This document shows, piece by piece, positions 1,307-36,227 of a DNA stretch of 64,000 nucleotides. The notes below the pieces were generated by a model, which worked only from the letters and a program-made list of their open reading frames with translations, had not been told where the DNA came from and ran no database searches. This DNA comes from Nitrosopumilus sp. Its GTDB lineage: Archaea; Thermoproteota; Nitrososphaeria; Nitrososphaerales; Nitrosopumilaceae. Location: assembly GCA_965218695.1 (NCBI GenBank), contig OZ244651.1, positions 2,048,001 through 2,112,000 of the forward strand, given 5' to 3'. The translations under genes were made by a program, and so were the position numbers. The first letter of the stretch is position 1. Every line of letters starts with the position of its first letter.

Positions 1307-1377
1307 CTGCAAGCAGAATCCTGCCCGACCGGCAGAAAATACGGCTTTTTGCCCCGCGGTGTGACACGCATAATCCC

Positions 1378-1409: not shown

Positions 1410-1501
1410 ATTCATGTAGAAACATCCCATAGTTCCCATAATTTGTGCACAGCATCCGCTAGACTCGGCATTGCCTACTGGCACCACCACCGGTTCCACA
1501 C

Positions 1502-2745: not shown

Positions 2746-2750
2746 ATTCA

Positions 2751-6832: not shown

Positions 6833-6869
6833 TTACACTCTTTTTTGCCCTTTGCATATTACTCTTTAT

Positions 6870-7328
6870 CTATCCTGGTGAGTATCTTCCTTTCAGCTTA
6901 GCCTCTGCAATAATGTGACCGTGCATTGCATCCTCGATCTTGGCCTTGGTGGAGTCTTTCCCGCACTCCAGCATGGAATCCAACGCATACAGTTTGAAGA
7001 CATATGTGTGCTCCCTGTCTGGAGGGGCCGGACCGCCATACCCCGTGTTGCCAAAGTCCGTCATGCCCTGAAGGCACCCGGACGGGACAGAGTCCTCCCC
7101 AATTCTGGTGGTGGCAGGATCAATATTCCACACAACCCAGTGCACCCAGACCTTTCCAACTGCACCCATGGCATCCGGGTCGTCCATTATCAGCGCAAGT
7201 GATGCCGTTCCTGCTGGGATCTGACTTATCTCCAGCGGAGGGCTGTGGTTTCCATTCTTGTACCCGTATCTTCTTGGAATGACGCTGCCGTTCTCAAAGG
7301 CAGCACTTCTCAAGGCAAGGTTTCCCAT
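6870..7328 (-). CDS. YbhB/YbcL Raf kinase inhibitor-like (PEBP) protein
   Basis: MDDPDA, WVHWVVWNI, GYGGPAPP..HTYVFKLYALD. Confidence 0.93.
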   Translation of the reverse strand: MGNLALRSAAFENGSVIPRRYGYKNGNHSPPLEISQIPAGTASLALIMDDPDAMGAVGKVWVHWVVWNIDPATTRIGEDSVPSGCLQGMTDFGNTGYGGPAPPDREHTYVFKLYALDSMLECGKDSTKAKIEDAMHGHIIAEAKLKGRYSPG

Positions 7329-7362
7329 GAATGGATTTGTGAATACCCAAAGTTAAATTTTT

Positions 7363-7731
7363 CTAAGATTCTAGGATTATTATATTCCTTGAGAGAGACA
7401 TTACCGTGCCTCCGCGCTCCTTTATCCCTCTCTTCAGACCCGCGTCCATCGTGGCAACAACTCCTCCATGCCCTGAGACATGCCTTAGAATCTCCCTGTC
7501 GGCAAACGTGCCCGTGATGGGGATCGTCTTGAGATTCTTGGCATACTCTAGAGTGTCCAGAGCGTCCCTGCTCTTTGATGGATCTTCTGCCAGCCTGGAC
7601 AGCTCAGTCTTTACCACATGGGGGACGACAAACTCTATATCCCCTATCTCCACATCAAGCCTGTCGATGTTCTTGATGCGCCGGGTCGCAAGATGAATCA
7701 AAAAGCTTGTATCACAGATGACCTCAACCAA
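7363..7731 (-). CDS. PIN-domain protein (Fcf1/Utp24-like)
   Basis: VICDTSFL, VVKTEL, VATMDAGL; conserved position after aIF2gamma. Confidence 0.88.
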   Translation of the reverse strand: MVEVICDTSFLIHLATRRIKNIDRLDVEIGDIEFVVPHVVKTELSRLAEDPSKSRDALDTLEYAKNLKTIPITGTFADREILRHVSGHGGVVATMDAGLKRGIKERGGTVMSLSRNIIILES

Positions 7732-8986
7732 CTATTCCTGCACCAATCAGTCTCCATCTCTCGGCAATCCTTCTGCTGATTGCCACATACCCGCCCTCAA
7801 AGATGCAGGCAGGCCTTCCCAGTTCGACCTCAATGCTGTCTGAAACCATCTTGGAGACCTTGCCTAGCACTGGGGCGGTTCCTATGTTCAACCGGAGCAT
7901 CTCGCCAGACTGTATGGGCTGCACCTTGACATCCTGCGTGGTTCCCACGGCTGAGTCAAACAGGTTTACATTAATCTTTAGAGTTGTGGAGTTCTCCGGA
8001 AGAGTGTCAGGCCTCCCAATGACTGAGCCGATAAAGGAGTCGCTTCTGGTCATGGACGGATCCAGTTTTGTCCCTATGGCGACTAGGCCGCCTGGTTTTA
8101 CCGAATCGACTATTCCTGCTGCAGTTCCAAGCGATGTAATCTCAGTTGTCAGCGGCCGGTATGATTTTTTCTTCTCACTCATGATGCCGGGTTTTATCTC
8201 GATCTCGTCGCCCACGTTAAAGACTCCCTGGGTTAGGCTTCCGCCTACAACCCCGCCCTTGATGTTCTTGAGTTTGGTACTGGGTCTGTTGACATCAAAC
8301 GAGCGCAACACATGCATGACTGCATCCTTCTTCTCGTCCCTTGCAGGCGTCTTTACGGTGGACTCTATGCAACCAATCAGCGCATCAATGTTCAGTCCCG
8401 ACTGAGCCGAGATTGGAACCACAGGTGCCCCTGCCGCATGTGTCCCCTCCACAAACTTTGAGATGTCGCGATAATTGTCCAGCACCTCCTGGTATGAGAG
8501 CAGGTCCACCTTGTTTTGCACCATTACAATCTGCCGTATGTTGAGAGTCTGAAGTGCCAAAAGATGCTCCTTTGTCTGCGGCTTTGGAACCTTCTCGTTT
8601 GCGGCAACCAGTAGCAGTGCACCGTCCATCAATGCAGAGCCGGACAGCATGTTTGCCATCAGGCTCTCGTGTCCGGGACTATCTACAAAACTCACCACCC
8701 TGGATAGCTGGCTCTCCCCTCCGCAGTTGTTGCACTTTGGGACAGTCGAGTATCCCAGGGGTTCCTCACAGCTGCTGCACTTGTAGAATGCCGCATCAGA
8801 ATAACCCACACGGATGGTGATTCCGCGCTTGAGTTCCTGGCTGTGGACGCTGGTCCAGGAACCTGTCAGTGCCTGGATGAGAGTCGTCTTTCCATGATCC
8901 ACATGGCCTGCGGTTCCGATGTTCACGCATGGCTGATACCCATACTTTTCAACGTACCATTCCGGCAGCGTCTCTCTCCAGTGCAT
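7724..8986 (-). CDS. eif2g: Translation initiation factor 2 gamma subunit
   Basis: GHVDHGKT, RGITI, DSPGH, NKVD, zinc knuckle. Confidence 0.97.
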   Translation of the reverse strand: MHWRETLPEWYVEKYGYQPCVNIGTAGHVDHGKTTLIQALTGSWTSVHSQELKRGITIRVGYSDAAFYKCSSCEEPLGYSTVPKCNNCGGESQLSRVVSFVDSPGHESLMANMLSGSALMDGALLLVAANEKVPKPQTKEHLLALQTLNIRQIVMVQNKVDLLSYQEVLDNYRDISKFVEGTHAAGAPVVPISAQSGLNIDALIGCIESTVKTPARDEKKDAVMHVLRSFDVNRPSTKLKNIKGGVVGGSLTQGVFNVGDEIEIKPGIMSEKKKSYRPLTTEITSLGTAAGIVDSVKPGGLVAIGTKLDPSMTRSDSFIGSVIGRPDTLPENSTTLKINVNLFDSAVGTTQDVKVQPIQSGEMLRLNIGTAPVLGKVSKMVSDSIEVELGRPACIFEGGYVAISRRIAERWRLIGAGIVG

Positions 8987-9040
8987 AAAGCAAAGTCTTC
9001 AGCCGGTATATGTTAAGCTATTCCTTTCAGGGTAAGTGGT

Positions 9041-9092
9041 TGGGTTTATGCCTGATTCCACAATATTGCAGACGTCAAACCTAAACAGTTGC
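9041..9092. repeat. Dispersed 52-bp intergenic repeat, copy 1
   Basis: 44/52 identical to 17328-17379. Confidence 0.85.
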
Positions 9093-9096
9093 TCTT

Positions 9097-9471
9097 TCAG
9101 GCGGTTCCTGCATCGGGGGCCTCTGCCGGAAGTTCTCCGTCGAGCCTGCAGTTAATCTGATAAATCTCCTCTGATATGGTGTTTCCACGCATCAGTTTTC
9201 TTACCCTCTGGCCCGACTCTGCATCCTGAAGGCCGACTCCCTTGGAGAGCAGGACATGCTTTCTTGCCGCGCCGTGAATGTCGCTCCGCATCGGAACGCC
9301 TGACTTGTCAGAACCGCCCGTAATCCTCAACCTGCCAGGAAACCCCACAACCGATGCATCCGTCTCGTCTCCCACCTGCAGACCAAGCAGGGGACTAGCA
9401 TCACTGTCCTTGAGCTCCTTTGAGACTGCCTTTCCTTTAGTATCTGATATCGTTATCTTGAAGTTTACCAA
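9097..9471 (-). CDS. rps6e: 30S ribosomal protein S6e
   Basis: ITGGSDKSGVPMR, RKLMRGNTI. Confidence 0.96.
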   Translation of the reverse strand: MVNFKITISDTKGKAVSKELKDSDASPLLGLQVGDETDASVVGFPGRLRITGGSDKSGVPMRSDIHGAARKHVLLSKGVGLQDAESGQRVRKLMRGNTISEEIYQINCRLDGELPAEAPDAGTA

Positions 9472-9767
9472 GCATTCCCAAAAAAAATCGCACGACTAAT
9501 TAATCTTTGGAACATTGGGTTCTCCTGCATCATCGGTTGGTGGCACAAATTCAGGATCTTCTCCAGATTTACTTGCCTGTTTTACGCACCGTTATGCCAT
9601 TCCCCATTAAATCATAATTCCTCTAGGGAGAATCTGCCAGTTGTGATGGATAATCCCAGTCATTGCCATGACATGCATTGATGGGACATCCATCACGCCA
9701 AGGCCAGTCTGGGCTACGTGTGTCGCTGCCGTTGCTACAGCTGCCGTTGCTACTGCTGCTGCTGCGA

Positions 9768-10913
9768 CTACGCTGCTGCTGCAGCAGCTGCTGCATTACT
9801 GATGAGGGTGATCTGCTTGTCCGTTCCAGATATGACGATCCCTGCGGCCTCTGCGGGTGTAATTTTGCCAATGCCGCCATGGGGGCGGAAAAAGTTGTGG
9901 TGGACGATCATCAGCCGCACAAGCGCGGGACTTTCTGTCCCGAACTCGCGGGCGGTCTTGATGCGATCCTTGAATTCGCCGTTAAGCCTCTCGTGCTTGT
10001 TGTTATGACTGAAGCGGTTCTTCAGGTGAATCTCCCGGACGTGGATCAGCCTGAAGCCGTTGCGTCTCCAAAACGCCCTGCGGGCGGCAGGACAAAACGC
10101 CTGCAGGCCGTCTGTTACCAGCACCCACGGGGTGGTTCCGGCCAGATTCCTTGCGGCTGCAAACAGGGGGGCGGGTCTGTAGTTGAGTTTTGTCTCAGAC
10201 ACGTCATGGGACAGTATGAACCTGCTGGCGCCGTCCATGACGGCAAAAAGCCACCGCGCCTGCGCGCGAACCTTGAAATGTATCTCGTCGCAGTGCCACT
10301 TGTAGCTCGTGCGCGGCTGCAGCCGCCTTGAATATTCATCCATCAGCGTCGAATAATGTGCAGTCCACCTGTATATCGTGCTTGAATGCACGGTTGTTCC
10401 GTCCTGTGCCATCACTGCCTGCACCGCAGCGCAGGACAGCCCGTACGCTGCCTCCCTGAGTGCCCGGGATATCGCCTCTGGGCCGGCATGGCGCTTCTTG
10501 AAGCCCGGCCGTCCGGAGAATGTCCGGCCGCACGGCTTACACCGGTACCGCCGGATCGGCCCGTACGCGTTGTGTCGGTGCCCGTTGCGTGCAAACACAG
10601 TCGACTTGCAATGGTGGCATGCAGTCTGAGGCATGCTAATGACAATTGTATTTTGGTTCCTGCACCGGTCCCACATCCGGCCAAGCAACACGTCCACTGC
10701 CCGCACGTGCTTGCACAGGCCGTCACAATTGACGTAATGCTGGCACGCGCATACAAACCCGGCAGAGCCAAGAATCACCAGATACCACAGTCCTGGAATA
10801 GACTGCGATGCCACATTCCATCGTCTGAGACTTGTCATCCTCACCTGCTTTGGGTCGTTGCTGATCACCTGTCCCTGCCTTGCCGCCGTTTTGGCGCGTT
10901 TTGCCCTGTTCAT
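9768..10913 (-). CDS. IS6/IS240-like DDE transposase with N-terminal SWIM and zinc-ribbon motifs
   Basis: CACQH..CKHV (SWIM), CHHC..CKPC, WHCDE, LVTDG, NNKHERLNGEFKDR. Confidence 0.9.
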   Translation of the reverse strand: MNRAKRAKTAARQGQVISNDPKQVRMTSLRRWNVASQSIPGLWYLVILGSAGFVCACQHYVNCDGLCKHVRAVDVLLGRMWDRCRNQNTIVISMPQTACHHCKSTVFARNGHRHNAYGPIRRYRCKPCGRTFSGRPGFKKRHAGPEAISRALREAAYGLSCAAVQAVMAQDGTTVHSSTIYRWTAHYSTLMDEYSRRLQPRTSYKWHCDEIHFKVRAQARWLFAVMDGASRFILSHDVSETKLNYRPAPLFAAARNLAGTTPWVLVTDGLQAFCPAARRAFWRRNGFRLIHVREIHLKNRFSHNNKHERLNGEFKDRIKTAREFGTESPALVRLMIVHHNFFRPHGGIGKITPAEAAGIVISGTDKQITLISNAAAAAAAA

Positions 10914-10984
10914 AAATAAACCAATTGGTATTATTACATAGATCTTTCTACCAGTCTTAAATAACAGGCAGCTAAAAAAAATTC

Positions 10985-11161
10985 ATGACCCAGTGGGCCA
11001 AAGACGCCAAGGAATTTACCGTTTCTGTGATCAAAAACGAGAAGCGTCTGACAAACTACAGCTACATACCAAAACCGATACTTGAAATGCTTGGCAATCC
11101 CGACAAACTAAAGTTTGTCATTTCCGGTGATGACATAATGGTGCGCAGGCCAGACGAGTGA
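10985..11161 (+). CDS. Small AbrB/SpoVT-like protein inside the IS6 element (58 aa; not in ORF track)
   Basis: Manual translation MTQWAKDAKEFTVSVIKNEKRLTNYSYIPKPILEMLGNPDKLKFVISGDDIMVRRPDE; IPKxIxxxLG pattern. Confidence 0.7.
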   Translation: MTQWAKDAKEFTVSVIKNEKRLTNYSYIPKPILEMLGNPDKLKFVISGDDIMVRRPDE

Positions 11162-12026
11162 ATCTGGAGAAGATCCTGATTTTGTGTCACCAACCGATGA
11201 TGCAGGAGAACCGGAACATTGTGGGTGTGCCCTAGAGGCATATGCCCCCGGATGACAAAAGATATGGATCGGCGGATCACGGCATCGCCTAATGACTACA
11301 AAGAAACGCGACCAACGACAGTACGATTTGGTTCAGCAGTACCTGTCGGGCCTCATGCTGAATACCGTGCTGGGAATAATCAAGAATCTTGGGGATCCGT
11401 ACGCCGTCAGGCCCGGCCTGGGCGGCATGACGGCATACCCGCCTGGCGCCATGGCAGCTGTCTGCATCATGCTTGAGGCACAGCGCACGACCTACCGTAA
11501 GATGGTCGGCATCCTCCGAAACAATAGCGCCATGGCAGCCAAGATGGGCCTAGAGAAAATTCCCTCCAAGAGCACGATAGCACGCGCCTACGGCCTGATC
11601 CCGGAATGGTACCTGGCAGAGGCACACCGGATTGCCATCAGGGAGGTGGAGGCAGGCTCCCTGGCAGCAGACGGTACCGGATACTCGTACCTGCGGTTTG
11701 TCAGGTGGTTTGACGTCAGGACCGACAGTTTTCGTACCAGAAAGGGATGGGTCAAACTGCACGCAATCGTGGATATCCGCACCAGGGTGATAATCGACTG
11801 CATGGTGACTGACAGCGCAGTGGCAGACATAAACGGGCTGTACGCGATGCTCGGCAGGTTAGGCCGGGGCACCGGCGACTTTTGCCTGGATTCTGCATAC
11901 CTGGCAAGGCTCATGTGCAACATGATATCTGCGATGGGAATGGTGCCCCGCATCAAGCCAAAATCCAACACCATACGCAACGCCAGGGGAAGCCAGTCGT
12001 GGCGCGAGATGGTAAGCCTGTACATG

Positions 12027-13198
12027 AGACATCATCCGTAATTGGGCATAATCACGAGATTGGACGCATTGCAGGACAAATCTGGCTGACTGCATGGAAT
12101 TGCATGTCAATTCGAACTTGCCCGATGATCAAAACTATACGTCAGCCGTGTTTTATTCTGATTGCCAATGTCAAAGCATGTCATTATACGACAAATTAGC
12201 AAAAAAGCCCAAACTGTTCATCCGGTGCACTGGACTGACAGTCTCCGAATTTAATTTGGTGGCAGGGCGGCTGGCAAAAAAATACCCCAAGGCAGAGCAA
12301 AAGCGACTCGCCAAAAGAAGCAGGGTGCGCGGCATTGGTGCCGGACGCAGGTGGAAACTGGATCTGAAAAACAGGTTTCTTCTGGTCCTGTTTTATTACA
12401 GGACATACGCTACGCAGGATCTTCTTGCCCTGACGTTCCATGTGGGTCAGGCCAGTGTGTCCCGCAGCATGGGGGCACTGGAGCCGTCGATCCGGCAGTG
12501 CGTTCCGCTTCCGTCAAAGATCTACGCCAACATCAAGGCCACCAAGACGCTTGACGATCTTGAGGAGATCATTCCTGGCCTGACTGCTCTGATTGATGCC
12601 TCCGAGCAGCAGATACAGCGTCCCGGACGCAAGGACATGGAACGGTCCCACTACTCGGGCAAGGCACACAGGCACACGTCCAAGGTCCAGTACACGTCGG
12701 CCACGGACGGCCTCATCCTTCACAAGACCCGGCATTCCCCGGGCAGGATCCACGACTTTGCAGTATTCAAGAAGAAACACCCGACATTCCCTGACAACCT
12801 TCCACGCAAGGACGGGAGCAAGGACAAGGAAAGGATCAAAGTCAGAGAGATCCTGGACAACGGATACCAGGGGATCAACAAAGAATTTCCTGACCGGGAT
12901 GCAGTAGTGCCGTACAAGAAGCAAAAAGGCGCAGAATTGTCCCCCGAGCAGAAGGAATTCAACAAAAAGCACTCAAAGGCACGGGTGTATGTGAAGCATG
13001 CCATCCGCAGGGTCAAACGGTTTCGCATAATGAGCGGTGTCTACCGAAACCGCCTGAAAAAATACGACACCGTCAATGACATCGTCTGCGGATTTGCCAA
13101 CCTCAGGGTTCTCCTAGTCCGGGAAGCAACCTGATAGGAGTCAAAAAACCTACACAGTATAGGAAAATATGTACAATTTCTAATTACGGATTATGTCT
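12027..13198 (+). mobile_element. Nested IS5-family (DDE_Tnp_4/ISL2-like) element
   Basis: 17-bp TIR AGACATCATCCGTAATT / AATTACGGATTATGTCT (1 mismatch); 3-bp TSD ATG (12024-12026, 13199-13201). Confidence 0.92.
12178..13134 (+). CDS. DDE_Tnp_4 family transposase
   Basis: LIDASEQQIQRP, HYSGK, HDF, LDNGYQG, RVYVKHAIRRVKRF (K where the catalytic E is expected; may be inactive). Confidence 0.9.
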   Translation: MSLYDKLAKKPKLFIRCTGLTVSEFNLVAGRLAKKYPKAEQKRLAKRSRVRGIGAGRRWKLDLKNRFLLVLFYYRTYATQDLLALTFHVGQASVSRSMGALEPSIRQCVPLPSKIYANIKATKTLDDLEEIIPGLTALIDASEQQIQRPGRKDMERSHYSGKAHRHTSKVQYTSATDGLILHKTRHSPGRIHDFAVFKKKHPTFPDNLPRKDGSKDKERIKVREILDNGYQGINKEFPDRDAVVPYKKQKGAELSPEQKEFNKKHSKARVYVKHAIRRVKRFRIMSGVYRNRLKKYDTVNDIVCGFANLRVLLVREAT

Positions 13199-13635
13199 AT
13201 GGATGAACGGGACAGGTTTGACTCGGAATACCACCAGCGCAGCATATCGAGGCAGTCTTTGCCGCCCTCAAGAAGATGTACGGGGACAGCACCAGGTGCC
13301 GAAAACACGAGAACCGGACAAGGGAGACTGCGATCCGTGTCATGTGCTACAACATCGAGCTCGTGGCCAGATTGCAGGCAAAAGACGGCAGGCTCACACA
13401 GGATCAAATCGCGACACTTGCAGCGTAACCGGCGCGTCTTGACACGCGCCTCCTAGCGGAGCCTCCGCACAGTGTCTTGGATTTGGGGGATTTTATGGGT
13501 TGTGAAAGATTGACGGTGCGGCACTGTTGGCGTCGACGGGTTCTGGCACCAATCATGTCTTTGGCATTCTGGTACATGGGATGGCATTTTTTATTACTAG
13601 GACACACCCGAACATTGTTCCGTACATACTCAGTA

Positions 13636-14971
13636 CAGTAATCCCAGATGTGCCATCTAGCACCTGATGCAAACAGATCAATGGGGGCACGCCCAGACGA
13701 TCCTTATGTACCACCAAAAAGATCGCCTGAGACGCGATATGATGAACAATGGCAAAATATATGAATCTGTTGAGAAGGTGCTGAGAGAAAGCATCGTGCC
13801 GTCCGCCGAGGTCTCCAAAAGGTACAACGCGACATATGGCGCAAGCGACTTTAACGTCGGCATGCTGCATGCCGCGATGCTTGACACTTCGGTCGGCGGA
13901 TGCAGCTTCGCCATGAGAGAAATCACGGCGCAGTCCATCGAGAATCCAAGATATTCACGTCATTCTCCAAGCGACGAGTGGTTTCGCGATATCCTGTCCA
14001 AGACGGACGAGGGTAAGGCGCTTGAGACTTTTAACCAGGCGGTAAGGGCACAGCTGGATGAGCTTTACCTGTTTGGCAGGCTGCCTGATGTGCTTGATGT
14101 GGCCATCGACATGCACCTGATACCGTGCCACAGCAAGAAACTTGGCTCTGACCTGAGAGGCGGAGAGCGCAAGAGCGGCACCAACAGATTCGAGGCGTAC
14201 ATCACGGCGCAGTGCGTCAACTCCAAATCGCGGCTTATCCTTGCGGCCCTATACGTGGACAAGTCCTCATCCGTGCACGAATCCCTGCGTGAAATCCTCA
14301 ATTCGTGCCTAGAAAACGTCTCCGCCGTCGGATCCAGGCTGGGACTGATCCTGGTTGACAGGGGCTTCTTTTCAGTGAACTCAATATCCGAGATTGAGCG
14401 TCTTAGCCTTGAGTACCTGATGCCGTGCACCAGAACCAGTAGGGTGAAAGACTCGCTGCGCAAGTTCGTGGCCAAAACGCTCGGCCCCATCTCAAAATCC
14501 GACATGACGAATTCTGACAAGGCAACGGTTCAGTACCACATGATCATAGCAGAGAAGAAGAGAGTAAGGAAGGAAAGTGAGGGGGCGAAGAACGGGGACA
14601 AGAAGGCAGGTGCGCCGGAAGATCGATACATTGCGTTTGCCACCAATGCCCCGTGGATGGATGTAGAGGAATATTCCAAAAGGTGGACCATCGAGACATG
14701 CTACAGACTGGTAGAGAATGCCAGGGCGAAATCGTTCGGCAGCAGTAGGCCTGCCCGGCTTTTCTGCTTTCTGTACTCGCTGATGCTATTCAATGCGTGG
14801 GTGCTGGTAAACGCGCAGCTGGCCAGCTTTCTGAAGCTGCGTGACGGAGTCCTTCCGGTGACGCAGCTGTATATGAAAATTGTCACGCTAATAGCAATCT
14901 ATCGGAATATTACGATTCAGCCCGAGCCACCGCCAGATCCCGTGGCTCCGTGAGCACATCTGGGATTACTG
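13636..14971 (+). mobile_element. ISH3-family element
   Basis: Perfect 18-bp TIR CAGTAATCCCAGATGTGC (13636-13653, 14954-14971); 5-bp TSD CAGTA. Confidence 0.93.
13667..14953 (+). CDS. ISH3/IS4-like transposase (start uncertain)
   Basis: VAIDMHLIP, LVDRGFFS, YSKRWTIETCYR. Confidence 0.9.
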   Translation: MQTDQWGHAQTILMYHQKDRLRRDMMNNGKIYESVEKVLRESIVPSAEVSKRYNATYGASDFNVGMLHAAMLDTSVGGCSFAMREITAQSIENPRYSRHSPSDEWFRDILSKTDEGKALETFNQAVRAQLDELYLFGRLPDVLDVAIDMHLIPCHSKKLGSDLRGGERKSGTNRFEAYITAQCVNSKSRLILAALYVDKSSSVHESLREILNSCLENVSAVGSRLGLILVDRGFFSVNSISEIERLSLEYLMPCTRTSRVKDSLRKFVAKTLGPISKSDMTNSDKATVQYHMIIAEKKRVRKESEGAKNGDKKAGAPEDRYIAFATNAPWMDVEEYSKRWTIETCYRLVENARAKSFGSSRPARLFCFLYSLMLFNAWVLVNAQLASFLKLRDGVLPVTQLYMKIVTLIAIYRNITIQPEPPPDPVAP

Positions 14972-15199
14972 CAGTACGCGTTCACCTCCCCCCTTGCCAA
15001 TTCCACGTTAGTTGGGATGTCATACATGGGCATGTGATTGACTCCATCATGGAAGCATCCACCAGAAGACACGTCGGTGTGAAAATGCATGGCAATGTCA
15101 TCCTGCAGGCAGGCCTGGGGCTTTTTGTGGCATGATCTGCAACGCATCCTGCCAAGATGGTGCGGCAACGACTAGGATCTGCGGGATGTCGTGGCGCGA

Positions 15200-16999
15200 T
15201 TATTTGAGATTCTGAAATATCGGCGGCGGCGTCCCGGCCTCGAACATGTTCCACGAGTCGCATGCGGTGACCGCGTCGCCTGAGAATATTCCGCGTTTTG
15301 CGCACGTGGCGTGGATCGTCTGGAGCGTGGCAAGGTTGTCTGCGGCGCGCCAGTTCGGAAGTATGCGCTGTATGTTGCGCGGCCTTACGACATACCCGCG
15401 TATGGTCCTCTCGCAGGCGTTGGTGCTGCCTTCCATCCCGGGATGTCCGATGAACGTGAGGAGGTGCGGGATGGCGTTTTCAAGCGTGTCTGCAAACTTG
15501 CGGCTGTCATCATCAGAGACTGCGCCGTTCCGGTATGCATGGGCCACCTTTTGGAGGCGCCTGAGCAGGGCCGACCGGCTTGACTCGACGTGTTCTGCCA
15601 GTCCCGGGACGGTCCTGACGGCGGTGCCGATGTCGCAGGCAGACCGTGCCGGTTCCCCGGCCATCTCGAGCGTCCTGGCAGCTGCTGCCTTGGCGTCATG
15701 GTATATGCGGCGCATCATGACGTACAGGACGTACTCAAACGAGCCGGTGCCGTGACGAATGGCCAGGCCCTCGCTCTTGCGGTTCACGTGCACAAAGCAC
15801 GACTGGAACTCTCTCCCAAAGGCGTTGCCTCCACGGTACATGTCTGCCACAAACGGCCTGCCCAGCACCATCCAAAAGACGCTTTCCATGGTCTTTCTGG
15901 ACTTGTCCTGCCGTATCCGTATGAGGGCGGCATGCTCTGTGTCCAGCACCATGCCCTGCGCCTGCCTGCCCCCGACGTTCTTGCGCGACTCGTCTATCTG
16001 TACGCATGGTGCCATGCTGATCTTTTCTTCTATCTGCCAGAGAAGCGGCTGTGCTGCTGCTGCTGCCGCTGCTGCTGCCGCTGCTATCGTGCCGGACCAG
16101 ACGGCATCCCGGCTCACATCGTACGGCCCGTGGTCTGCAGACGGCGGCAGAAGCAGGAGCGGTGCCTTGGAGACTAACGGTATTTCTGCATGGTCGGGGG
16201 CCGTTTCCGGACGGTTCCCTTTTGCGCGTCCTGCCGTCCCCGACAGGCAGTTGGATATGCATCCTGTAGATAGCGTGACGCCGTGGTTTGATGCCAGGAG
16301 CTTTTGGATGGACCTTACGGATGGCACGACTGCGTGTATGTTGGTAATTATCCTCCTCAGACCGGGCCCGAGCGATGATCCCGCAATGGTGCCTGTCTCG
16401 GGGCGCGTGACGGTGCCGCACCCGATGCAGTATGCCGGCACGGTCTCCTCCACGTGGCAGACTGCCATCCCGTTGCCGCATCGGGGCAAATCAAGCACCA
16501 CTTTCCAGAACGCCCCTTCGGGCTGCGTGTCCGTCCTGCCACAGTTTTTGCACGTGTCTGCCCGATACGTCCTGGTCCCAGTCGGCTTGCAGGCGTGGGA
16601 GACTCCCTTTGTACCGGACTGATGCCCGCGCCGCCTTCCGGCAGGACGGGCGCTGCTGCTGCTGCTGCTGCCGCCTTCTGCCCTGCAGGTTCCGCCGTCT
16701 GCCATTCTCTGGAACTCTTTTCGCTTCTTGGCAAACAGGACCGTCTCCCTGGAGGAATGGTTCCAACTCTCGTGGACCGACAGCATCCTTTTGAGACTGG
16801 CCACCTCTTTTTTCAGGTCGTCATTCTCCATGGTCTTTTGTGCCAGCCTGTCCCTCAACGAATCCACCAATCCCAAACACATCGCGACCACCCCGATCAG
16901 ACAATCCACCACTCCCCATGCGCGGCGCAGTTCCGCCTGCAGGATCAGTTTTTCAGATTTTGGGGGGGTCATGCCTAAAGGGACACCTGCCCGTGGCAT
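15200..16999 (-). CDS. IS66-family transposase (start uncertain)
   Basis: Coiled coil, CKNC..CIGC, QIDES, FQSCFVH, STNACERTIR; poly-Ser and poly-Ala tracts. Confidence 0.88.
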   Translation of the reverse strand: MPRAGVPLGMTPPKSEKLILQAELRRAWGVVDCLIGVVAMCLGLVDSLRDRLAQKTMENDDLKKEVASLKRMLSVHESWNHSSRETVLFAKKRKEFQRMADGGTCRAEGGSSSSSSARPAGRRRGHQSGTKGVSHACKPTGTRTYRADTCKNCGRTDTQPEGAFWKVVLDLPRCGNGMAVCHVEETVPAYCIGCGTVTRPETGTIAGSSLGPGLRRIITNIHAVVPSVRSIQKLLASNHGVTLSTGCISNCLSGTAGRAKGNRPETAPDHAEIPLVSKAPLLLLPPSADHGPYDVSRDAVWSGTIAAAAAAAAAAAQPLLWQIEEKISMAPCVQIDESRKNVGGRQAQGMVLDTEHAALIRIRQDKSRKTMESVFWMVLGRPFVADMYRGGNAFGREFQSCFVHVNRKSEGLAIRHGTGSFEYVLYVMMRRIYHDAKAAAARTLEMAGEPARSACDIGTAVRTVPGLAEHVESSRSALLRRLQKVAHAYRNGAVSDDDSRKFADTLENAIPHLLTFIGHPGMEGSTNACERTIRGYVVRPRNIQRILPNWRAADNLATLQTIHATCAKRGIFSGDAVTACDSWNMFEAGTPPPIFQNLK

Positions 17000-22170: not shown

Positions 22171-23292
22171 TCATCCCACGCTTGCCACTCCCTTGCATAT
22201 CATATATGCTGCAGCGTACATGGGGACACTCACCTTTTCATTGGGGTATGGGCCAAACCATCTGTTGCGCAGCTGGAACCGCACCGGGCAGTCTGCCCGA
22301 ACCTCCGTCGCATCGTCATCAAGAAGGGACGCTGCAGTGTACGGGTTGAACTCTGCCGGATCCCTGCAGCGGATCTTTACAAGCCCGCTCTTGCCGTTGA
22401 TGGAGCCGGGCAGTCTGAAGATCCTGTGGATGTCAGTTGTTACGTTGGGATCTATTCTGACCCCGATCTTGCCTGAGGCATCTTCAAGAACCCTCTGAAA
22501 TAAGATGGGACCGTCTGCAAATAGTCCCTTGATGGTCTTGACCCTTGCAGATTTTGAGCCGATTACGGATCTTGCAAATCTCCCGCGCCATCCCTTCTCG
22601 TCCATGCCTGGAAAATCCTTCTGGGCGGGCTGCTTGTTCCTCATACCAAACGATCTGGGGATCGCCCCCTTGAACATAATATAATCTGCAAGCTCTACTC
22701 GCTCTCTGGATCCTGCCTTCTGAAACTGCGAGCCGTGCACATGGACATGAAACCCCTCGTTTCCAGAAAAATAGATCCGGATGCCATCTCTCTCCACACC
22801 AAGATCGTCTGTCAGGATCCTGGACAGTCTGTCAACCTGTTTCCCTGCCCCCCCAATACACTTTCTGCACGACAGGGATTTTGACTTCAGCCTCTTGGAA
22901 CCGCATGCAGTGCAGCTCTGCCCCTGCCCGGCCCTGCCACACTCTGTGCATACTGATACTGTATGCTCCTTCCTGCACGGCAGGCCGAGATCCTTGGCAT
23001 CGATGTCAAAGATAAGCTCTGCCTCCTTCCAGATCTTCTCGGACATGGGCAGGTTGGGAAAGTGGTAGTATGCATTTGAGCAGTAAACGTCTGACGGCAC
23101 GTTCTGCAGGAGCAGGAGGCGCAGCTCCCCGTCGTTCCTTACTGATATGTGGCGGATCATGCCAGAATCAAACTTCTGATACCCAAACTCCCTTTCAGGC
23201 GCACGCTCCGGCGTCTCAACCAGTCCTGAGTGCTCAAAGTAGTATCTCTTGAAGGCCCTCTTCAGGATCTCCATGTCTGCCTCGTGCATCAT
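22171..23292 (-). CDS. priS: DNA primase small subunit
   Basis: REFGY, LIFDIDAKDL, FSGNEGFHVH, DIHRIFRLPGS. Confidence 0.95.
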   Translation of the reverse strand: MMHEADMEILKRAFKRYYFEHSGLVETPERAPEREFGYQKFDSGMIRHISVRNDGELRLLLLQNVPSDVYCSNAYYHFPNLPMSEKIWKEAELIFDIDAKDLGLPCRKEHTVSVCTECGRAGQGQSCTACGSKRLKSKSLSCRKCIGGAGKQVDRLSRILTDDLGVERDGIRIYFSGNEGFHVHVHGSQFQKAGSRERVELADYIMFKGAIPRSFGMRNKQPAQKDFPGMDEKGWRGRFARSVIGSKSARVKTIKGLFADGPILFQRVLEDASGKIGVRIDPNVTTDIHRIFRLPGSINGKSGLVKIRCRDPAEFNPYTAASLLDDDATEVRADCPVRFQLRNRWFGPYPNEKVSVPMYAAAYMICKGVASVG

Positions 23293-25133
23293 CTTCTCTT
23301 ACCAAACTGCATGGGGTTGATGATGTTGTTGCACTCGGGTGTGGCAAAGCATAGATCCTGCGTCCTGATCTTGTCACATGACGGACAGGCGTACTGCGTG
23401 CCGCTGCTTCCTGCAAGGTGGTTCAGTTGGTATGCTGTTATCTTCTCGTTGTAGTCCGGGGCGTTCTTGAACAGCGGTGCGATCTGCTTGACTGACTGGC
23501 CCCTTGCCAGCAGGAACGTGGCCAGCATGAAGCGTCCCGAGTGTGGAAGATTATCCCCCTTCTCCAGCACATCTATTGCATGTTTTATACACGGAGGATA
23601 CTCCCCGGCATCGACTGTGGGAACCACAAACTGCCTTGAGATCTCGACCAACCTCCCCTTGTATCCTTCAAAACCCGGAATCATCTCTGGAGTCTTGGCC
23701 TCTGTGATCTTTGTGGTGATGTGCTGTACCAGCTCGTGCCTGATCAACCTCGCTGTCTCATGGGAGGTAATATGGACTCCGCCGTCCCAGACCTGCCTGT
23801 TGATAAGCTTCCACTCCCTTTCATGAAAATGAACCGAATACCGTATGTAGTCTGATACGGGAATTACATAGTAGTTGTCCTCTCTTCTGATCTGGATTGA
23901 GAAGAGCTCGTAGAGTATTCTTGTTGCCAGTCTCTGCCTTGAATCATCCGTGCCGGCCAGATCGCCTTCAAGATACTTTTCTGCGCGTCTTGCCTCTCCC
24001 AGCGCAAACCTCCTGACCATGCTCTGGTTGCCGCACAGCTTTAGCATGATGATTGCCAGAAGGAACGAAAAGACCTCAGTCGGCAGTGCCGCCTCGTCTG
24101 ACAGATTCTCTGACCTGTAGACTCCGCCCCCGATGCCGGTCCTGACCCTCTCAAAAGACTTCTTCATTATGTGTGCAAGATCTGGATCTGTGCCAAACTC
24201 CTCAGGCGTGAACTTCTTGTCCCTGAGGTATTGTCCGGCGTCTGCCAGAAACGGATACTTGGCCATCTCTTTCTCCCCCAATGCATGCATGCCTGTCTGC
24301 ACCACGCCATCCGTGCTGTTCTGAGGACCGATCCCTCTTCTGACAAACCTGATGATCTGACTGATGGCGCCGTCTCCGTAGTCCCTCATTATACCCTGAT
24401 TCCTAAACGATCCAGGATCGAGCGCTCCTGCAGAATCCGTCTCCAACCTCTCAAGTAGCCCGTCCTGCAGCCTCTCACACATCTCGCGTGTCGTCTTACC
24501 GGAGGCTGCCCGCTTTTGGAGCTCTAGGCCTGCCTGGTCAGGCCCGCTGTTGTGGACCAGCATGTATCGCAGGCATCTTATTGCCTCAGTCGTCTCTTCA
24601 TCCAGTATGCGTGCAGTTCTGTCCTTCCCTACCGCAAGCCATATGTTTGTGATGAATCCGGCAATGTCGTCGCCTGCCTTTGCCCTCTTTGCGTCATCGG
24701 CAAACGGGAGCAGGGCTGACAGCTCCGTGTCTGCCCGCATCCTTAGCAACTCTCTGGACAGGCTCTTGCGTCTCTGGTCTTCGGTGCTGTACGCAGCATC
24801 CTGTGCAGGGATCGGCCTGCCTGACGGATCAGCCTTCTGCGTTGTGCCTGCCTGCCTGCACTCCAAGACATCTCCGGTAAGAACAGTCACCCACTGTGTC
24901 CACATCAGTGCCATCTCAGTGGCCTTCTCCTCAGCCCTGCCCATGGTCGTGATGCCATCTGCACTCCCCAGCGTGATCCTAAACCCAGTAATACTGCGCG
25001 GCTCCTCCTCGTCCCTGACAAACTCAATAATATCGTCGTCTGCAATGTCATCAGTAGTGATCCTCCCAGACAGATCAAATGCAGTCTCCCATGTCTCTGG
25101 CATCACGTCCGCTGTACTGTGAGGTTCTGGCAT
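23289..25133 (-). CDS. priL: DNA primase large subunit with 281-aa N-terminal extension (PriL core from ATG at 24290)
   Basis: AKYPFL, YPPCI, LPHSGRF, PDYNEKITAYQL, CPSCDK..LC..C (Fe-S domain); no stop between extension and core. Confidence 0.9.
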   Translation of the reverse strand: MPEPHSTADVMPETWETAFDLSGRITTDDIADDDIIEFVRDEEEPRSITGFRITLGSADGITTMGRAEEKATEMALMWTQWVTVLTGDVLECRQAGTTQKADPSGRPIPAQDAAYSTEDQRRKSLSRELLRMRADTELSALLPFADDAKRAKAGDDIAGFITNIWLAVGKDRTARILDEETTEAIRCLRYMLVHNSGPDQAGLELQKRAASGKTTREMCERLQDGLLERLETDSAGALDPGSFRNQGIMRDYGDGAISQIIRFVRRGIGPQNSTDGVVQTGMHALGEKEMAKYPFLADAGQYLRDKKFTPEEFGTDPDLAHIMKKSFERVRTGIGGGVYRSENLSDEAALPTEVFSFLLAIIMLKLCGNQSMVRRFALGEARRAEKYLEGDLAGTDDSRQRLATRILYELFSIQIRREDNYYVIPVSDYIRYSVHFHEREWKLINRQVWDGGVHITSHETARLIRHELVQHITTKITEAKTPEMIPGFEGYKGRLVEISRQFVVPTVDAGEYPPCIKHAIDVLEKGDNLPHSGRFMLATFLLARGQSVKQIAPLFKNAPDYNEKITAYQLNHLAGSSGTQYACPSCDKIRTQDLCFATPECNNIINPMQFGKRR

Positions 25134-25269
25134 CTACCCTACATTGGAATTATCATCTAAAAGAAGTATCTCTTCTGAAGGTGTGGTTCCGCACCGATCA
25201 GACTGAACCTACTGGATGTGGGCACGCTCTGGATACGGGTTTAAATTATGTTCAAGGCAGTCTGAAGAC

Positions 25270-26109
25270 ATGCAGGTAGGATGCCATGTCTCAATATCTG
25301 GTTCCATTGACATGGCAGTAGACAACGCAGTCCAGAGGGAGTGCTCTGCCTTTCAGATATTTACCCGAAACCCGAGGGGCTGGCACGCAAAGCCCCTGAC
25401 GGATCAGGACATTTCTAAATTCAGGTCAAAAATGGAGGCAAGCCGGATAGACAGGTTTGCGACATGCGCGCACATGCCGTACCTGCCAAATCTTGCAACC
25501 CCCAAGGACGACGGCTTTGAAAAGTCAGTAAAGACCCTGATCGGAGAGGCCGGGCGGTGCGCACAGCTTGGAATACCGTACCTTGTAACGCACCTTGGAA
25601 GCCATCTGGGCACAGGCGAGGAAGCCGGGATGCGGAGGCTGGCAAGCGGCCTGAGCGAGGCCGGACGCACTGACCATGATGTCATGATACTCCTAGAGAA
25701 CACCGCAGGCCAGAAGAACTCGGTGGGGTCTGACTTTGAACAGCTCGGGGAGCTCTTCGGACATCTGAAACCTACTGAAAGGTTCGGGGTATGCCTTGAT
25801 ACGTGTCATGCATTTGTGGCAGGTTATGACCTTCGGACAGAAGAGAATGTAGAGAAGACCTTTGAAGAGTTTGATCGGCATGTGGGATTGGAGCACCTGA
25901 AGATTATCCACCTGAACGATGCCAAGGGAGAGATAGGATGCAATCTTGACAGGCACTACCATCTGGGCCTGGGCGGCATCGGGGAGGATGGGATATCTGC
26001 CGTGGTACGGCTTGCCAACAGGAGAAAAATCCCGATTATCCTGGAGACGCCCATTGACGATGTCCGGGACGACTTTGCAAACATTAGAAAAGCAAAGGAG
26101 CTTGCGTAG
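25270..26109 (+). CDS. nfo: Endonuclease IV
   Basis: GCHVS, HMPYLPNL, LENTAG, CLDTCH, HLND, DRH, ILETP. Confidence 0.95.
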   Translation: MQVGCHVSISGSIDMAVDNAVQRECSAFQIFTRNPRGWHAKPLTDQDISKFRSKMEASRIDRFATCAHMPYLPNLATPKDDGFEKSVKTLIGEAGRCAQLGIPYLVTHLGSHLGTGEEAGMRRLASGLSEAGRTDHDVMILLENTAGQKNSVGSDFEQLGELFGHLKPTERFGVCLDTCHAFVAGYDLRTEENVEKTFEEFDRHVGLEHLKIIHLNDAKGEIGCNLDRHYHLGLGGIGEDGISAVVRLANRRKIPIILETPIDDVRDDFANIRKAKELA

Positions 26110-30067: not shown

Positions 30068-31234
30068 ATGACCAACGGTTTTCTATTTACATCCGAATCC
30101 GTAACAGAGGGGCATCCAGACAAGCTGTGCGACAACATCTCTGATGCATTCTTGGACGAGTATCTCAAACAGGATAGGGACTCGCGGGTGGCAGTCGAGA
30201 CGATGGTGACTACTGATTTTGTGGCAGTCTCCGGCGAGGTAACATCCAAGGCTGACCTTGACAGGAAGGCACAGGAGGATCTGATACGAAAGACGATCAA
30301 GGAGATAGGATACGACAACAAGGATCTGATGTTTGATGCCGACACATGCCAGGTAAACCTGAGGTTGCACTCGCAAAGTCCGGATATTAGCCAGGGCGTG
30401 ACTGCCACTCAGGACAGGGAACAGGGCGCAGGTGATCAGGGATTGATGTTTGGTTATGCAACAGACGAGACTGAGGAGATGATGCCCATGCCTATTCTGC
30501 TTGCGCACAGGCTGACTCAGAGGCTCTCTGAGGTCAGAAGGAATGGAACCCTGCCATGGATCAGGCCAGACGGCAAGTCGCAGGTATCGGTACGATACGA
30601 GGATGACATGCCTGCCGAGATTGAGACGGTTGTGATTTCAACCCAGCACAGCCCGGAGATGTCCCATGATGTGATTACTTCTGAGATCACAGAGAAGGTA
30701 ATCCGGCCTGTTCTAGGCGCGCGCTGGCATGACGGAATTAAGATCCATATCAACCCTACCGGAAAGTTTGTAATCGGAGGACCCCACGGTGACGCCGGAC
30801 TGACCGGAAGAAAGATCATCGTTGATACGTATGGCGGATTCGGCAGGCACGGCGGTGGAGCCTTTTCCGGGAAGGATCCCTCCAAAGTGGACAGATCCGC
30901 CTGCTACATGTGCAGGTATATAGCAAAGAATCTTGTTGCTGCAGGACTGGCCAGTCGGTGCGAGGTGCAGCTTGCATATGCAATCGGGGTGGCAGAACCG
31001 GTATCCCTGTATGTAAACACGTTTGGAACGAACAAAATTCCTGAAAAACAGATTGAGAGTTTGGTCAGGGAGAACTTTGACATGAAGCCGTCGGGAATAA
31101 TCTCGGAGCTGGATCTGAAGAGGCCTATATATAAAAAGACGGCATCATACGGGCATTTTGGAAGAGACGAGCCGGAGTTCTCATGGGAGAGAACCAACAA
31201 AGCCGAAACCCTAAGAAGGTCTGCTGGACTGTAG
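30068..31234 (+). CDS. metK: S-adenosylmethionine synthetase (bacterial type)
   Basis: [25 protein letters not shown]. Confidence 0.97.
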
Positions 31235-33800: not shown

Positions 33801-34901
33801 TCAGGCAGCAGCAGTCGCCTTGGCGCGCCTGATTGCATCTGTCGCGTATTCTGGCAGTTGGGGCAGACTTACCGTGCCTGACTGAATCATCTCGTCCATG
33901 GCTCCCGTCATGTCCTCCACACGCCGGTACAGGCCGTTGGCGACGTACCTCTTGAGTTCTTTCCAGACCATCTCGACTGGGTTGAGATCCGGCGAATATG
34001 TCGGCTGGTAGGCAATCCTGACGTCCCCATCGTACTTTTTCAACTCTGCCATCAGCTTTTTGGATTTGTGGATGGATGCATTGTCCATCACCAAGAGTAC
34101 CTTCCCGTAGGCATCGTGCAGGCCATTGACAAAATCAATCATCGAATCGGTGTTGCCGCAGTCATAGTACCTGTGGTGTAGCAGACCGTCCAATCCCAGT
34201 GCCCCAAAGCACGTGTAGCTCCTGCCAAACGGCTTGATCACCTGCGGTATTGACAGGCCACGCGCAAGCCAGGTCATGCCGCGGATCGTTTTTGTGGTAA
34301 AATGGGACTCGTCCATCCAGAAGAGGCGGTGTCCATCCACGGTATTGCTAAAAATCTCCTTTGCCAGGCCGCGCTTAAATTCTGCCTTTACCTCGTCAGA
34401 AGGCGAGCGGCCGTGGCGCGGCCTTCCGGGTTTTCTGTATGTCTTGTTCAGCCTGTGCATCGTCCTGTATGCCGTACTGGGAGAGACGTTGTCAATGGAG
34501 AACAGACTGGAGATCATGATCAGAATCAGCCTTCCGGTCCAGACGTTGGATTTTATCCCACATCCGCCCGGCTGCCTGTCGATGGACTCGGATATCTTTG
34601 AATGGATTTCTGGCTGGATCTTTCTTGGCCTTCCGGGCTTGGTCTTGTCAGGACATGCATCAAGACCGCCCAAGTGCATGCGGTGCAGCCGGTCGTAAAT
34701 GGTACTGACCGGCACGTGCAGCTTGCCTGCGATCCATACCCCGTCTTCTCCCTCACGCCTCCACATGCAGGCAAGCAGTATGTTGACTGCTTTGCCGTTC
34801 TTCTCTTTTTTGAGGGCCTCTTGGATCTCCCTCATGGATGTGCCTGCCATGAACGCGTCTCCCTTGGGTATGTTTTCGTTTCGGCGTTTTGTACCAGCCA
34901 T
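33801..34901 (-). CDS. IS630-family transposase
   Basis: PGRP, FWMDES, VMDNASIH, YSPDLNPVEMVW. Confidence 0.95.
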   Translation of the reverse strand: MAGTKRRNENIPKGDAFMAGTSMREIQEALKKEKNGKAVNILLACMWRREGEDGVWIAGKLHVPVSTIYDRLHRMHLGGLDACPDKTKPGRPRKIQPEIHSKISESIDRQPGGCGIKSNVWTGRLILIMISSLFSIDNVSPSTAYRTMHRLNKTYRKPGRPRHGRSPSDEVKAEFKRGLAKEIFSNTVDGHRLFWMDESHFTTKTIRGMTWLARGLSIPQVIKPFGRSYTCFGALGLDGLLHHRYYDCGNTDSMIDFVNGLHDAYGKVLLVMDNASIHKSKKLMAELKKYDGDVRIAYQPTYSPDLNPVEMVWKELKRYVANGLYRRVEDMTGAMDEMIQSGTVSLPQLPEYATDAIRRAKATAAA

Positions 34902-36227
34902 GATTAAGCGCGGAGGTATCGCTGATCTTAAGGTTTTGATTATTCAGGCAGTACCGGAACCAAAACTGGGTTTACCGTTCCGGATCTTTATGATGGGCAC
35001 TATATCTCTCCTTTGGGTGGCATCTTGCGCACAAACGCCTGGGCTGGCGTCTCCTCCCCGTCTAGGCCAAGTGACATGTGCGGTCTGTCGTAATTGTACC
35101 ACTGCATGAAGAGGTCCACCGGGTCGCTCTTGCGCATCATTATCGCCTCAAATTCGGGCAGCTTCCGCTGGATCTCCTCGTGCAGCCTCTCCAGCTTGCC
35201 GTTGGTCTGCGGGTGCCTCACGCCTGCCAGAATCTGCTTGATGCCAAGCTCTGCCAGCCTCTTTTCGAACTCGGATGCACCCTTTTTCTTTGCCTCTGAT
35301 GCGGTGGCGTAGAACTGGGATCCGCGGTCAGTCATTATGGATGCAGGCTTGCCGTGGTTTCTTATCGCCTCGTCCAATACTGACAGGGCGTTTTCTGCCG
35401 TTGCGCGCTCAAACGTGCCGTACGCAGTCACGAACCGCGAGGCGTCGTCCTCGTAACACAGGAACCACCTGCCGTCGTCAAGCAGCTTGTAGTCGGTGTG
35501 CCACATCGAGTTGGAGTAGGTGCGCTCAAAGCGGATCCACTTGCGGCGCTTGCTCTTGTTGGGCTGTCTGGCAGCCAGATCCTCGTCACGCAATACCATG
35601 TGTATGCGGTTGTATGGAATATTTATTCCGGTGACGTCCCTTATGCGCCCGTGCAGGCGTACGGCCCCGACGTGGTCATTGCCCTTGGCGCACAGTACCG
35701 CAGAGTGTTCCTTCCGGCCGGGAAGGCCGCATGCGGGCCTGCCCATGTGCATCGGATATGCCACGCTGCTGCGTTCCTGTCCCTTGTACCTGGAATACGG
35801 CTTCCTTATCCACCGCGGCGACACACCCATGGTCTTGGAGATGCATGAATTGGTGGATCCCTTGTCCTTCTCCGAAAGTATCCACCTTACCTTCGATTCG
35901 TCCAGCTTTTTCATGATGCGTACTCTCCGGGTTCCCATATGCCGCCACCGATTGGAGTACATCGTTCTTGCCCACACACCCTTGCTTCCACTCAACACCA
36001 GGCTGATCTTGCTTCCAAACACGCCGGCTCCATTGGCTAGGGGAGGAACTACTTTTTGTACAACGTAAATTTTTAGTCACAAACCATATCATATATCCCA
36101 CACGGCATGATCCGGGTGTCGCATAGGTGGTCAATGTCTTTCGTGCAACGGCCCTGCAATGCCGTCTGAATGTGTTTCAGACATGAATACCTGTACCGTT
36201 TAAATCATTAGACATACTTTCCAGAGC

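Follow-up and report, generated by a model that had tools for sequence, protein, structure and literature searches.

A HEPN-like domain at the N-terminus of the only replicative primase large subunit in a clade of Nitrosopumilus-type archaea

PriL, the large or regulatory subunit of the replicative primase, is an essential core subunit of the replisome, and its architecture is very stable in archaea and eukaryotes. The locus described here raises the question of what 281 additional residues are doing at the N-terminus of such a protein, where they came from, and whether they are translated with it. The gene lies on the minus strand (23289..25133) of a stretch of 64,000 nucleotides from the genome of a Nitrosopumilus sp. 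(contig OZ244651.1, positions 2,048,001 to 2,112,000 of the forward strand), to which we refer as the window and in which the positions given below are counted; the features of the locus are collected in Table 1. Our analysis suggests that the extension is probably a domesticated, non-catalytic module derived from a HEPN domain, carried by the sole PriL of the organism, translated with it as one protein of 614 amino acids and belonging to the operon of priS. A first-pass annotation, made from the letters of the window, had already described a single frame of this length, with an in-frame ATG at 24290 and the motif RYMLVH at 24569-24552, and all three are confirmed: the open reading frame (ORF) list of the window gives one frame of 614 residues without interruption, and the arginine and histidine of the motif are R189 and H194. 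The frame is not an assembly error. The full stretch is spanned by one Logan contig each from the samples X1 and X2 and is covered jointly by two Logan contigs from X4, in every case with no deviating letter and no gap; X1, X2 and X4 come from a single study, which is possibly the source of the assembly itself; a contig of X5, from a second study, extends over 23523-25300 with 96 substitutions and 0 gaps.

The C-terminal part of the protein is an ordinary PriL. The Pfam model PF04104 matches residues 421–592 with 79.1 bits against a cut-off of 22.4, and the NCBIfam PriL models align with residues 285–613 (E 2.2e-64), yet stay under their equivalog cut-offs. The cysteines C515, C583, C586, C595 and C601 are invariant across fused and unfused PriL, and four of them would presumably bind the Fe-S cluster. 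When compared with canonical archaeal PriL (PF04104, ~330-400 aa), residues 282–614 match over the whole length, keep the cysteines, stand in a priL-priS operon and show an identity of 64-66% with the 344-aa PriL found in the genus, whereas the 281 residues that precede them are additional. The ATG at 24290 follows these 281 codons in the context MLALGQDEIAKYPF, as compared with MHALGEKEMAKYPF in the 344-aa PriL of relatives. One single PriL match, the 614-aa gene, was found in the whole genome. A survey of 41 related genomes gave a PriL match in 37, of which three hold the long form (open frame of 614-627 aa), namely this genome (G000), G002 and G018, the latter two with 94% and 70% identity to the window protein; every other full PriL match in the 37 genomes has an open frame of 329-401 aa.

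The arrangement of the locus in unfused relatives indicates how the extension was acquired. In these, glyS and nfo lie on one strand and priL and priS on the other, the spacer between nfo and priL measures ~80 bp, and within the same genus the extension has homologues that stand alone. Both observations bear out the earlier proposal that priL was joined in frame to a separate gene, inserted between it and nfo. From the layout of the relatives, together with the patchy distribution of the stand-alone family described below, we therefore conclude that an accessory gene landed in this spacer and lost its stop codon; the flexible linker of residues 269–281 probably derives from the former spacer. 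At third codon positions the GC content of the extension (0.63) matches that of the PriL part (0.64), as expected after amelioration.

Further fused forms were recovered from a collection of 5.8 billion proteins: P0132 and P0133, which are the clusters matching G002 and G018, and P0134 (603 aa), P0135 (478 aa), P0161 (607 aa) and P0162 (624 aa). The fusion, whose conservation among relatives the first-pass annotation had asked to be checked, is thus present in seven lineages, and in a tree of the PriL core (18 rows) these form one clade with 100/100 support, which leads to the conclusion that it arose once. The identity of the N-terminal part to the window protein goes down to 42% (P0162). Scanning metagenome contigs with the fused N-termini yielded no relative, and the scan of genome contigs yielded only the two genomes already found and none further. 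P0135, as called in the collection, begins at the start of the helical subdomain and is without the alpha/beta subdomain; its contig measures 19.8 kb, which makes a contig end an unlikely cause. Another type of long PriL was encountered among proteins of related archaea in the collection (P0159 and P0160, 585 aa): here PriL has two tandem copies of its N-terminal domain, with KYPFL...QYLEEHGFTLEQ present twice, ~245 residues apart, ahead of a normal Cys-rich C-terminal domain. These two proteins constitute a separate branch (100/100).

We further analysed the extension as a protein family of its own. Used alone as a query against 151 genomes of the genus, it is found fused in three, and weak matches in G159 and G146 correspond to stand-alone genes of 240 and 257 aa, the products of which align end to end with the extension and have in common with it ITGF, L-R-x-x-L-x-H and D..S..N. 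A profile built from three fused and two stand-alone sequences and searched against 1.84 billion representatives retrieved 131 proteins at E<=1e-3 (63 at 1e-10), mostly of 235-270 aa. The 26 family clusters present in the named collection are all called 'hypothetical protein' or are nameless, with no precomputed Pfam domain. Searching the profile against PDB sequences gave chance matches only (E>=0.055), and the ESM Atlas gave no usable match for the extension. The stand-alone family is patchy, being detected in 13 of the 401 genomes of the order and in 3 of 82 genera; one copy adjoins a transposase-like ORF, as judged from its sequence. The ORF lists around nine stand-alone copies, read without a Pfam scan, showed neither a conserved neighbour nor an antitoxin-like partner. 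Some stand-alone copies are broken by stop codons or are fragments (G499:C39:1204-1908, G499:C55:51-777, G076:C64:3623-3964 and G145:C1:1096215-1096520), which fits a dispensable accessory gene. One member of 314 aa (L022:1480-2424, minus strand, genome G069) has an extra N-terminal Cys-rich stretch (CPGC...CGH) resembling a zinc ribbon, and N-terminal extensions of 80-100 aa also occur in the representatives P0032, P0042 and P0053.

Does this family belong to one already described? The first-pass annotation had suggested MauJ or ApeA, the former being presumably a member of the HEPN clan. The window protein has no Pfam match over its extension, and in the whole genome neither PF17419 (MauJ) nor PF18739 (the HEPN domain of ApeA) gives anything at E<=10. 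The likeness to MauJ is confined to matches below the PF17419 cut-off of 28 bits, over the helical domain, in 2 of 109 family representatives (P0123, E 1.8e-4, 22.8 bits; P0075, E 7.5e-3, 17.6 bits); a further sub-threshold match, to HEPN pEK499_p136, was obtained for one of 67 rows. Neither membership is upheld by these results. ApeA is described in passages of a survey of the HEPN superfamily (PMC3710099) as having an N-terminal domain of ~300 aa, mostly beta, followed by a C-terminal HEPN domain, and the window protein departs from it on this count as well as by the absence of PF18739. In our reading the extension belongs to a new, unnamed family of HEPN type, without Pfam membership and outside ApeA and MauJ.

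The assignment to HEPN rests on conserved residues and their place in the predicted fold. In a family alignment of 67 rows (three fused N-termini and 64 stand-alone proteins, hand-picked for near-full length), R189 and H194 are the sole invariant columns. The consensus around them in the stand-alone proteins is K-Y-x-x-L-R-[N/H/D]-A-L-S-H, and position 163 is E in 52% of the stand-alone rows. An AlphaFold2 model computed on this alignment has a predicted local distance difference test score (pLDDT) of 85.6 and a predicted template modelling score of 0.82, with residues 100–124 poorly predicted and a disordered tail at 272–279 (pLDDT <50); a second model of residues 122–272 alone (11 rows) reaches a pLDDT of 86.6. 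Two subdomains are seen, an alpha/beta one and a helical one. For the full model, VIA-align places at ranks 1 to 3 the chains 2hsb (Z 7.2, root-mean-square deviation 2.5, 89 residues aligned), 7ae2 (Z 7.0) and 5yep (Z 6.6), the last of which we take to be a HEPN toxin, its PDB title not saying so. For the domain model, 2hsb (Z 7.0) and 7ae2 (Z 6.9) again occupy ranks 1 and 2. HEPN stands in the title of 6 of the 50 rows listed for the full model, more rows being HEPN according to a 2013 survey (1ylm, 1wwp) or being Csm6 or Csx1. In both wide structure searches, at least 10 of the 50 listed rows are chains of HEPN, Csm6 or Csx1 type. The alpha/beta subdomain (residues 14–99), compared as part of the full model, has weak structure matches only (a designed ferredoxin-like protein at Z 6.4, and viral L proteins).

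In passages of the same survey (PMC3710099), the HEPN motif is located where a core helix ends and the next loop begins. This is its position in the model, in which H194 is the last residue of helix 179–194 and residues 195–197 form a loop, and the spacing R189-Y-M-L-V-H194 falls within the R-x4-6-H of HEPN proteins. Two other features of these proteins are lacking in the window protein: the residue directly after the arginine, usually a polar N, D or H, is Y190 (it is H in G002 and G018), and the acidic residue of the preceding helix is replaced, N occupying position 163 in three fused rows of the alignment A3. Because of the motif and its placement at the helix end, which tip the balance beyond what the fold scores would do, we read the extension as HEPN-derived. 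The earlier description of it as HEPN-like is borne out by the invariant R-x4-H at a helix end and by the HEPN chains at the top of the VIA-align search; the check proposed along with it, Foldseek on an AlphaFold2 model, returned nothing significant in the PDB.

Comparison of fused and stand-alone forms at the R/H pair gives an indication of the fate of the catalytic centre. The pair is intact in 64 of 64 stand-alone rows and broken in four of the seven fused lineages, in each by a different substitution. It is retained as RYMLVH in the window protein and as RHMLVH in G002 and G018, and is replaced by RDMLVY in P0134, RHMLVL in P0135, QHMLVH in P0161 and QQMLVQ in P0162. The family residues K184, Y185 and S193 have become A/G, I and V, respectively, in every one of the seven fused forms. 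Six of the seven keep D239 (V in P0162), and six keep S242 and N245, P0134 having L at 242. Since the pair is broken in four of seven fused but in none of the 64 stand-alone forms, RNase activity appears dispensable in the fused context; judging from these substitutions, selection would thus preserve the domain but no longer its catalytic centre. The suggestion of the first-pass annotation that the extension acts as a guard or as an addiction module requires an active RNase and is weakened by the broken pairs and by the replacement of K184, Y185, S193 and E163, although this genome keeps both R and H.

That the extension is maintained as protein is indicated by its rate of evolution. Between this genome and G018 the ratio of non-synonymous to synonymous substitution rates (dN/dS) of the extension is 0.30 (bootstrap 95% 0.21-0.42, maximum 0.53 in 2000 replicates) at a dS of ~0.9, as against ratios of 0.19 (PriL part), 0.18 (priS) and 0.11 (nfo), and the three internal indels of the extension are all in frame. 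By these measures the extension is under purifying selection. The ancestral start methionine of PriL is lost in three of the seven fused lineages, where G018 has V (GTG), P0161 has I and P0162 has S. A second methionine is present only in G000 and G002 and absent in the five others, and P0161 and P0162 have no methionine near the junction. A recent loss of a stop codon with the internal ATG still in use, which the first-pass annotation had held to be equally possible, does not agree with a clade of seven members, with such a dN/dS at this dS, or with the repeated loss of that methionine.

Upstream of the long frame, the spacer between nfo and priL holds two conserved islands in G000, G002 and G018, of which one is also kept beside nfo in unfused relatives and the other is an AT-rich box. 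The latter lies at ~-29 relative to the long start; boxes of this kind also precede several other genes of the window, at ~-29 to -33. With the simple AT-box score that was used for promoters, which is weak evidence, 7 of 8 is obtained before 25133, and 5 and 4 before the ATGs at 24290 and 24266, values that are typical for background. Judging from its composition and position, the box is likely to serve as promoter for priL-priS, the transcript of which would be leaderless or have a short leader. Selection, the placement of the AT-rich box, the lost internal methionine and the fact that no other PriL match exists in the genome lead us to infer that the full-length protein is the working PriL.

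These results can be combined into the following scheme, which we consider probable. In the common ancestor of the fused lineages, a small, ammonia-oxidising clade of Nitrosopumilus type, an accessory gene of ~240 aa would have landed between nfo and priL in the orientation of priL. It would have encoded an N-terminal alpha/beta domain and a helical domain of HEPN type with an R-x4-H active site and, on losing its stop codon, would have become the N-terminus of PriL. One product of 614 aa would now be made from a promoter upstream of the ATG at 25133 and be cotranscribed with priS. Residues 282–614 would fill the usual role of PriL, pairing with PriS, with the Cys-rich domain (Fe-S in other PriLs) binding the initiating nucleotide and the primer. 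The module itself is most likely retained as a non-catalytic appendage, for a role other than cleaving RNA, such as binding RNA, nucleotides or another protein, dimerisation or the docking of a partner.

Several points weigh against this reading and have to be set beside the alternatives that they favour. The non-catalytic role, the full-length translation and the promoter, and with them the transcription start and the size of the protein, are its inferred steps, no RNA run having been listed for the stretch, and some internal initiation could occur, from the GTG in G018 and from the ATGs in this genome. A neutral read-through, in which the extension would be a functionless, decaying remnant, PriL would be made from the internal ATG at 24290 or 24266, and the long frame would be open by chance, could draw on these two ATGs, the second preceded by GGGGGAG, on the missing alpha/beta subdomain of P0135, on the decay of catalytic residues in the sister lineages and on the many insertion sequences of the genome, a hint of relaxed selection. 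We nevertheless consider it very improbable: even the bootstrap maximum of dN/dS stays at 0.53, the indels respect the frame, the frame is open in seven lineages at identities as low as 42%, a confident model of the fold is still obtained, the methionine is gone from three lineages, two of which have no substitute near the junction, and the internal ATGs have no AT-rich box in front. Doubt of another kind attaches to the fold. Foldseek against the PDB finds nothing at E<=0.001 for either the full or the domain model (best E 0.077 and 0.36), 2hsb appearing at rank 21 with E 2 for the domain model; a VIA-align Z of ~7 falls in the range common for helical bundles (<8) and is tied with designed bundles and CTLH-CRA domains; no HEPN-clan model of Pfam, NCBIfam or PADLOC recognises the window protein, and these libraries and PHROGs give no match at threshold to the extension or to the family members. 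The invariance of R189 and H194 is moreover that of a hand-picked alignment, outside of which 7 of 70 first representatives are without R-x4-H, all of them fragments or matching only the part before the motif. An unrelated bundle, with R and H conserved for another role such as the binding of a ligand or a metal, is on balance improbable, since the invariant R-x4-H, the N, H or D after the arginine, the helix-end position and the acidic residue at 163 are hallmarks of HEPN domains in the passages at hand of PMC3710099, since HEPN-type chains include ranks 1 and 2 of the structure search, and since the few sub-threshold sequence matches are to MauJ and to a HEPN model.

The alternative that most directly concerns this genome is an active RNase tethered to the primase, in which the HEPN domain is triggered by disturbed priming or replication, such as a virus might cause (a suicide or antiviral guard), or processes RNA primers. 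Here it counts that R189 and H194 are intact in this genome, G002 and G018, so that 'non-catalytic' is established for the sister lineages only, and that these sister lineages (P0134, P0135, P0161, P0162) are metagenomic, with 1-2 member sequences each, and known as protein only. D239, S242 and N245 of the family are also retained, and the stand-alone family resembles a single-gene accessory or defence element, patchy, sometimes found by transposase fragments and sometimes pseudogenised, its N-terminal domain followed by a C-terminal HEPN recalling Abi-type and ApeA-type proteins as presented in passages of PMC3710099 and in a preprint (10.64898/2026.01.26.701840). Weak residual RNase activity is possible in this genome, from the presence of R and H and with an unusual Y after the arginine. 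As an explanation of the fusion, however, an active RNase seems unlikely to us. The domain has been retained in four lineages in which the pair was broken in four different ways; Y190 departs from the usual N, D or H and K184, Y185, S193 and E163 are replaced; a toxin constitutively tethered to an essential protein would be costly; and in the surroundings of the nine stand-alone copies neither an antitoxin partner nor a conserved neighbour came to light. An active enzyme would make the broken pairs of the sister lineages secondary losses, which we likewise doubt.

A domesticated, non-catalytic module, the reading that we prefer, can be placed among known HEPN systems. Defence proteins of ApeA type resemble the extension and its relatives in domain order, with a non-catalytic domain at the N-terminus and an R-x4-H HEPN at the C-terminus, and in being encoded by a single gene of patchy occurrence (passages of PMC3710099; 10.64898/2026.01.26.701840), whereas the N-terminal domain of the window protein is alpha/beta and of ~90 aa, no PF18739 is found, the module is fused to PriL, and the R/H pair decays in sister lineages. 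The toxins of HepT or HEPN-MNT type and minimal HEPN proteins (2hsb, 7ae2, 5yep, 1ylm, 1wol) provide the best structural matches (Z 7.2-6.2, 89-101 residues aligned, root-mean-square deviation 2.5-4.7) and have an R-x4-H type motif in common with the extension; the differences are an identity of 9-12%, the absence of a sequence-profile match, extra helices in the extension (198–242) and, in neighbourhoods read without a Pfam scan, no MNT-type antitoxin gene adjoining the stand-alone copies. Swt1 and HEPN domains fused to nucleotidyltransferases are inactive or motif-less according to passages of PMC3710099. In Swt1 and similar recruited domains, as in the extension, the domain is kept within a larger housekeeping protein and R-x4-H is partly or wholly lost; the difference is that the partner here is a replicative primase subunit. 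HEPN domains that are inactive within larger proteins, such as Swt1, are the nearest precedent for the fate of the extension. Its probable forebears are single-gene HEPN proteins of the Abi/ApeA kind, and it may work like them, with an N-terminal sensor-like domain and a C-terminal HEPN. A fusion of HEPN to a primase subunit does not appear in the text of PMC3710099 as available, where 'primase' occurs only in the reference list, its additional files possibly listing more. Among the matches listed by full-text literature searches that combined HEPN with PriL or 'primase large subunit', none was relevant as judged by title and abstract, and those for MauJ with HEPN, or for Nitrosopumilus, sponge symbiont and HEPN, likewise listed nothing relevant to the fusion.

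Table 1. Features of the nfo-priL-priS locus (positions in the window; residues numbered in the 614-aa protein)
Feature	Positions	Strand	Remarks
PriS (primase catalytic subunit)	22171..23292	-	PF01896; start overlaps priL stop by 4 nt (ATGA); same gene order in relatives
Canonical PriL (primase large/regulatory subunit) core with Cys-rich C-terminal domain	23289..24290	-	PF04104 and NCBIfam PriL models; invariant cysteines
Ancestral PriL start codon, today internal (M282)	24288..24290	-	aligns with start of relatives' 344-aa PriL; V (GTG), I or S in 3/7 fused lineages
Flexible linker, residues 269-281	24291..24329	-	pLDDT <50 at 272-279; stand-alone relatives stop at ~residue 268; variable, 12 residues longer in P0162
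Helical HEPN-like subdomain (predicted), residues 125-268	24330..24761	-	models of pLDDT 85.6 and 86.6; top VIA-align matches are HEPN
R-x4-H motif RYMLVH (R189...H194)	24552..24569	-	C-terminal end of helix 179-194; invariant columns
Alpha/beta N-terminal subdomain (predicted), residues 14-99 (three strands, long helix, strand), motif ITGF	24837..25094	-	model pLDDT ~90; aligns with stand-alone relatives
Start codon of fused ORF (M1; MPEP...)	25131..25133	-	ATGCCAGAACC kept in G000, G002, G018; P0134 and P0161 also begin MPEP
AT-rich TATA-like box (ATACTTCTTTTAGATGATAATT)	25148..25169	-	conserved; 15-36 nt upstream of the ATG of the long ORF
nfo, divergent endonuclease-IV-type apurinic/apyrimidinic endonuclease	25216..26109	+	PF01261, E 3.2e-43; true start more likely 25270 (MQVGCHVS), where relatives begin

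Other parts of the window carry many transposase ORFs, in 275-16999 and 33801-35962, at least nine of them with Pfam domains (DDE_Tnp_1 three times, IS110, DDE_Tnp_4, IS66, DDE_3 and rve twice). Such crowding is unusual when compared with the small, streamlined genomes of the genus and fits relaxed selection and frequent insertion. The DDE_Tnp_1 ORFs at 275-1237 (minus strand) and 11292-12041 (plus strand) have upstream sequences of 70 nt with 3 differences, which identifies them as two copies of one insertion sequence, the second being shorter (249 vs. 320 aa). An S-adenosylmethionine synthetase with the S-AdoMet_synt_N, M and C domains (C-terminal E 1.8e-70) is encoded at 30068-31234 on the plus strand; many archaea use a separate, archaeal-type S-adenosylmethionine synthetase.

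An entire clade thus appears to have attached a domain from a family of RNases of toxin or defence type to its only copy of PriL and to have kept it over a long divergence as the catalytic residues eroded. If this is true, it would be a clean natural case of a conflict-system domain domesticated into the replication machinery, and would at the same time define a HEPN-like family without prior name, with 131 representatives, none above a Pfam threshold. It raises the question of the role of a HEPN-shaped module on a primase, for which RNA primer handling, dimerisation and partner recruitment are candidates. The lineages that keep R and H are natural comparators for those that have lost them, the whole constituting a series of active-site-intact and active-site-dead forms. 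Should the domain be active in the former, a HEPN RNase borne by the primase could trim or destroy RNA primers, or act as a replication-coupled suicide or antiviral switch when priming is hijacked.

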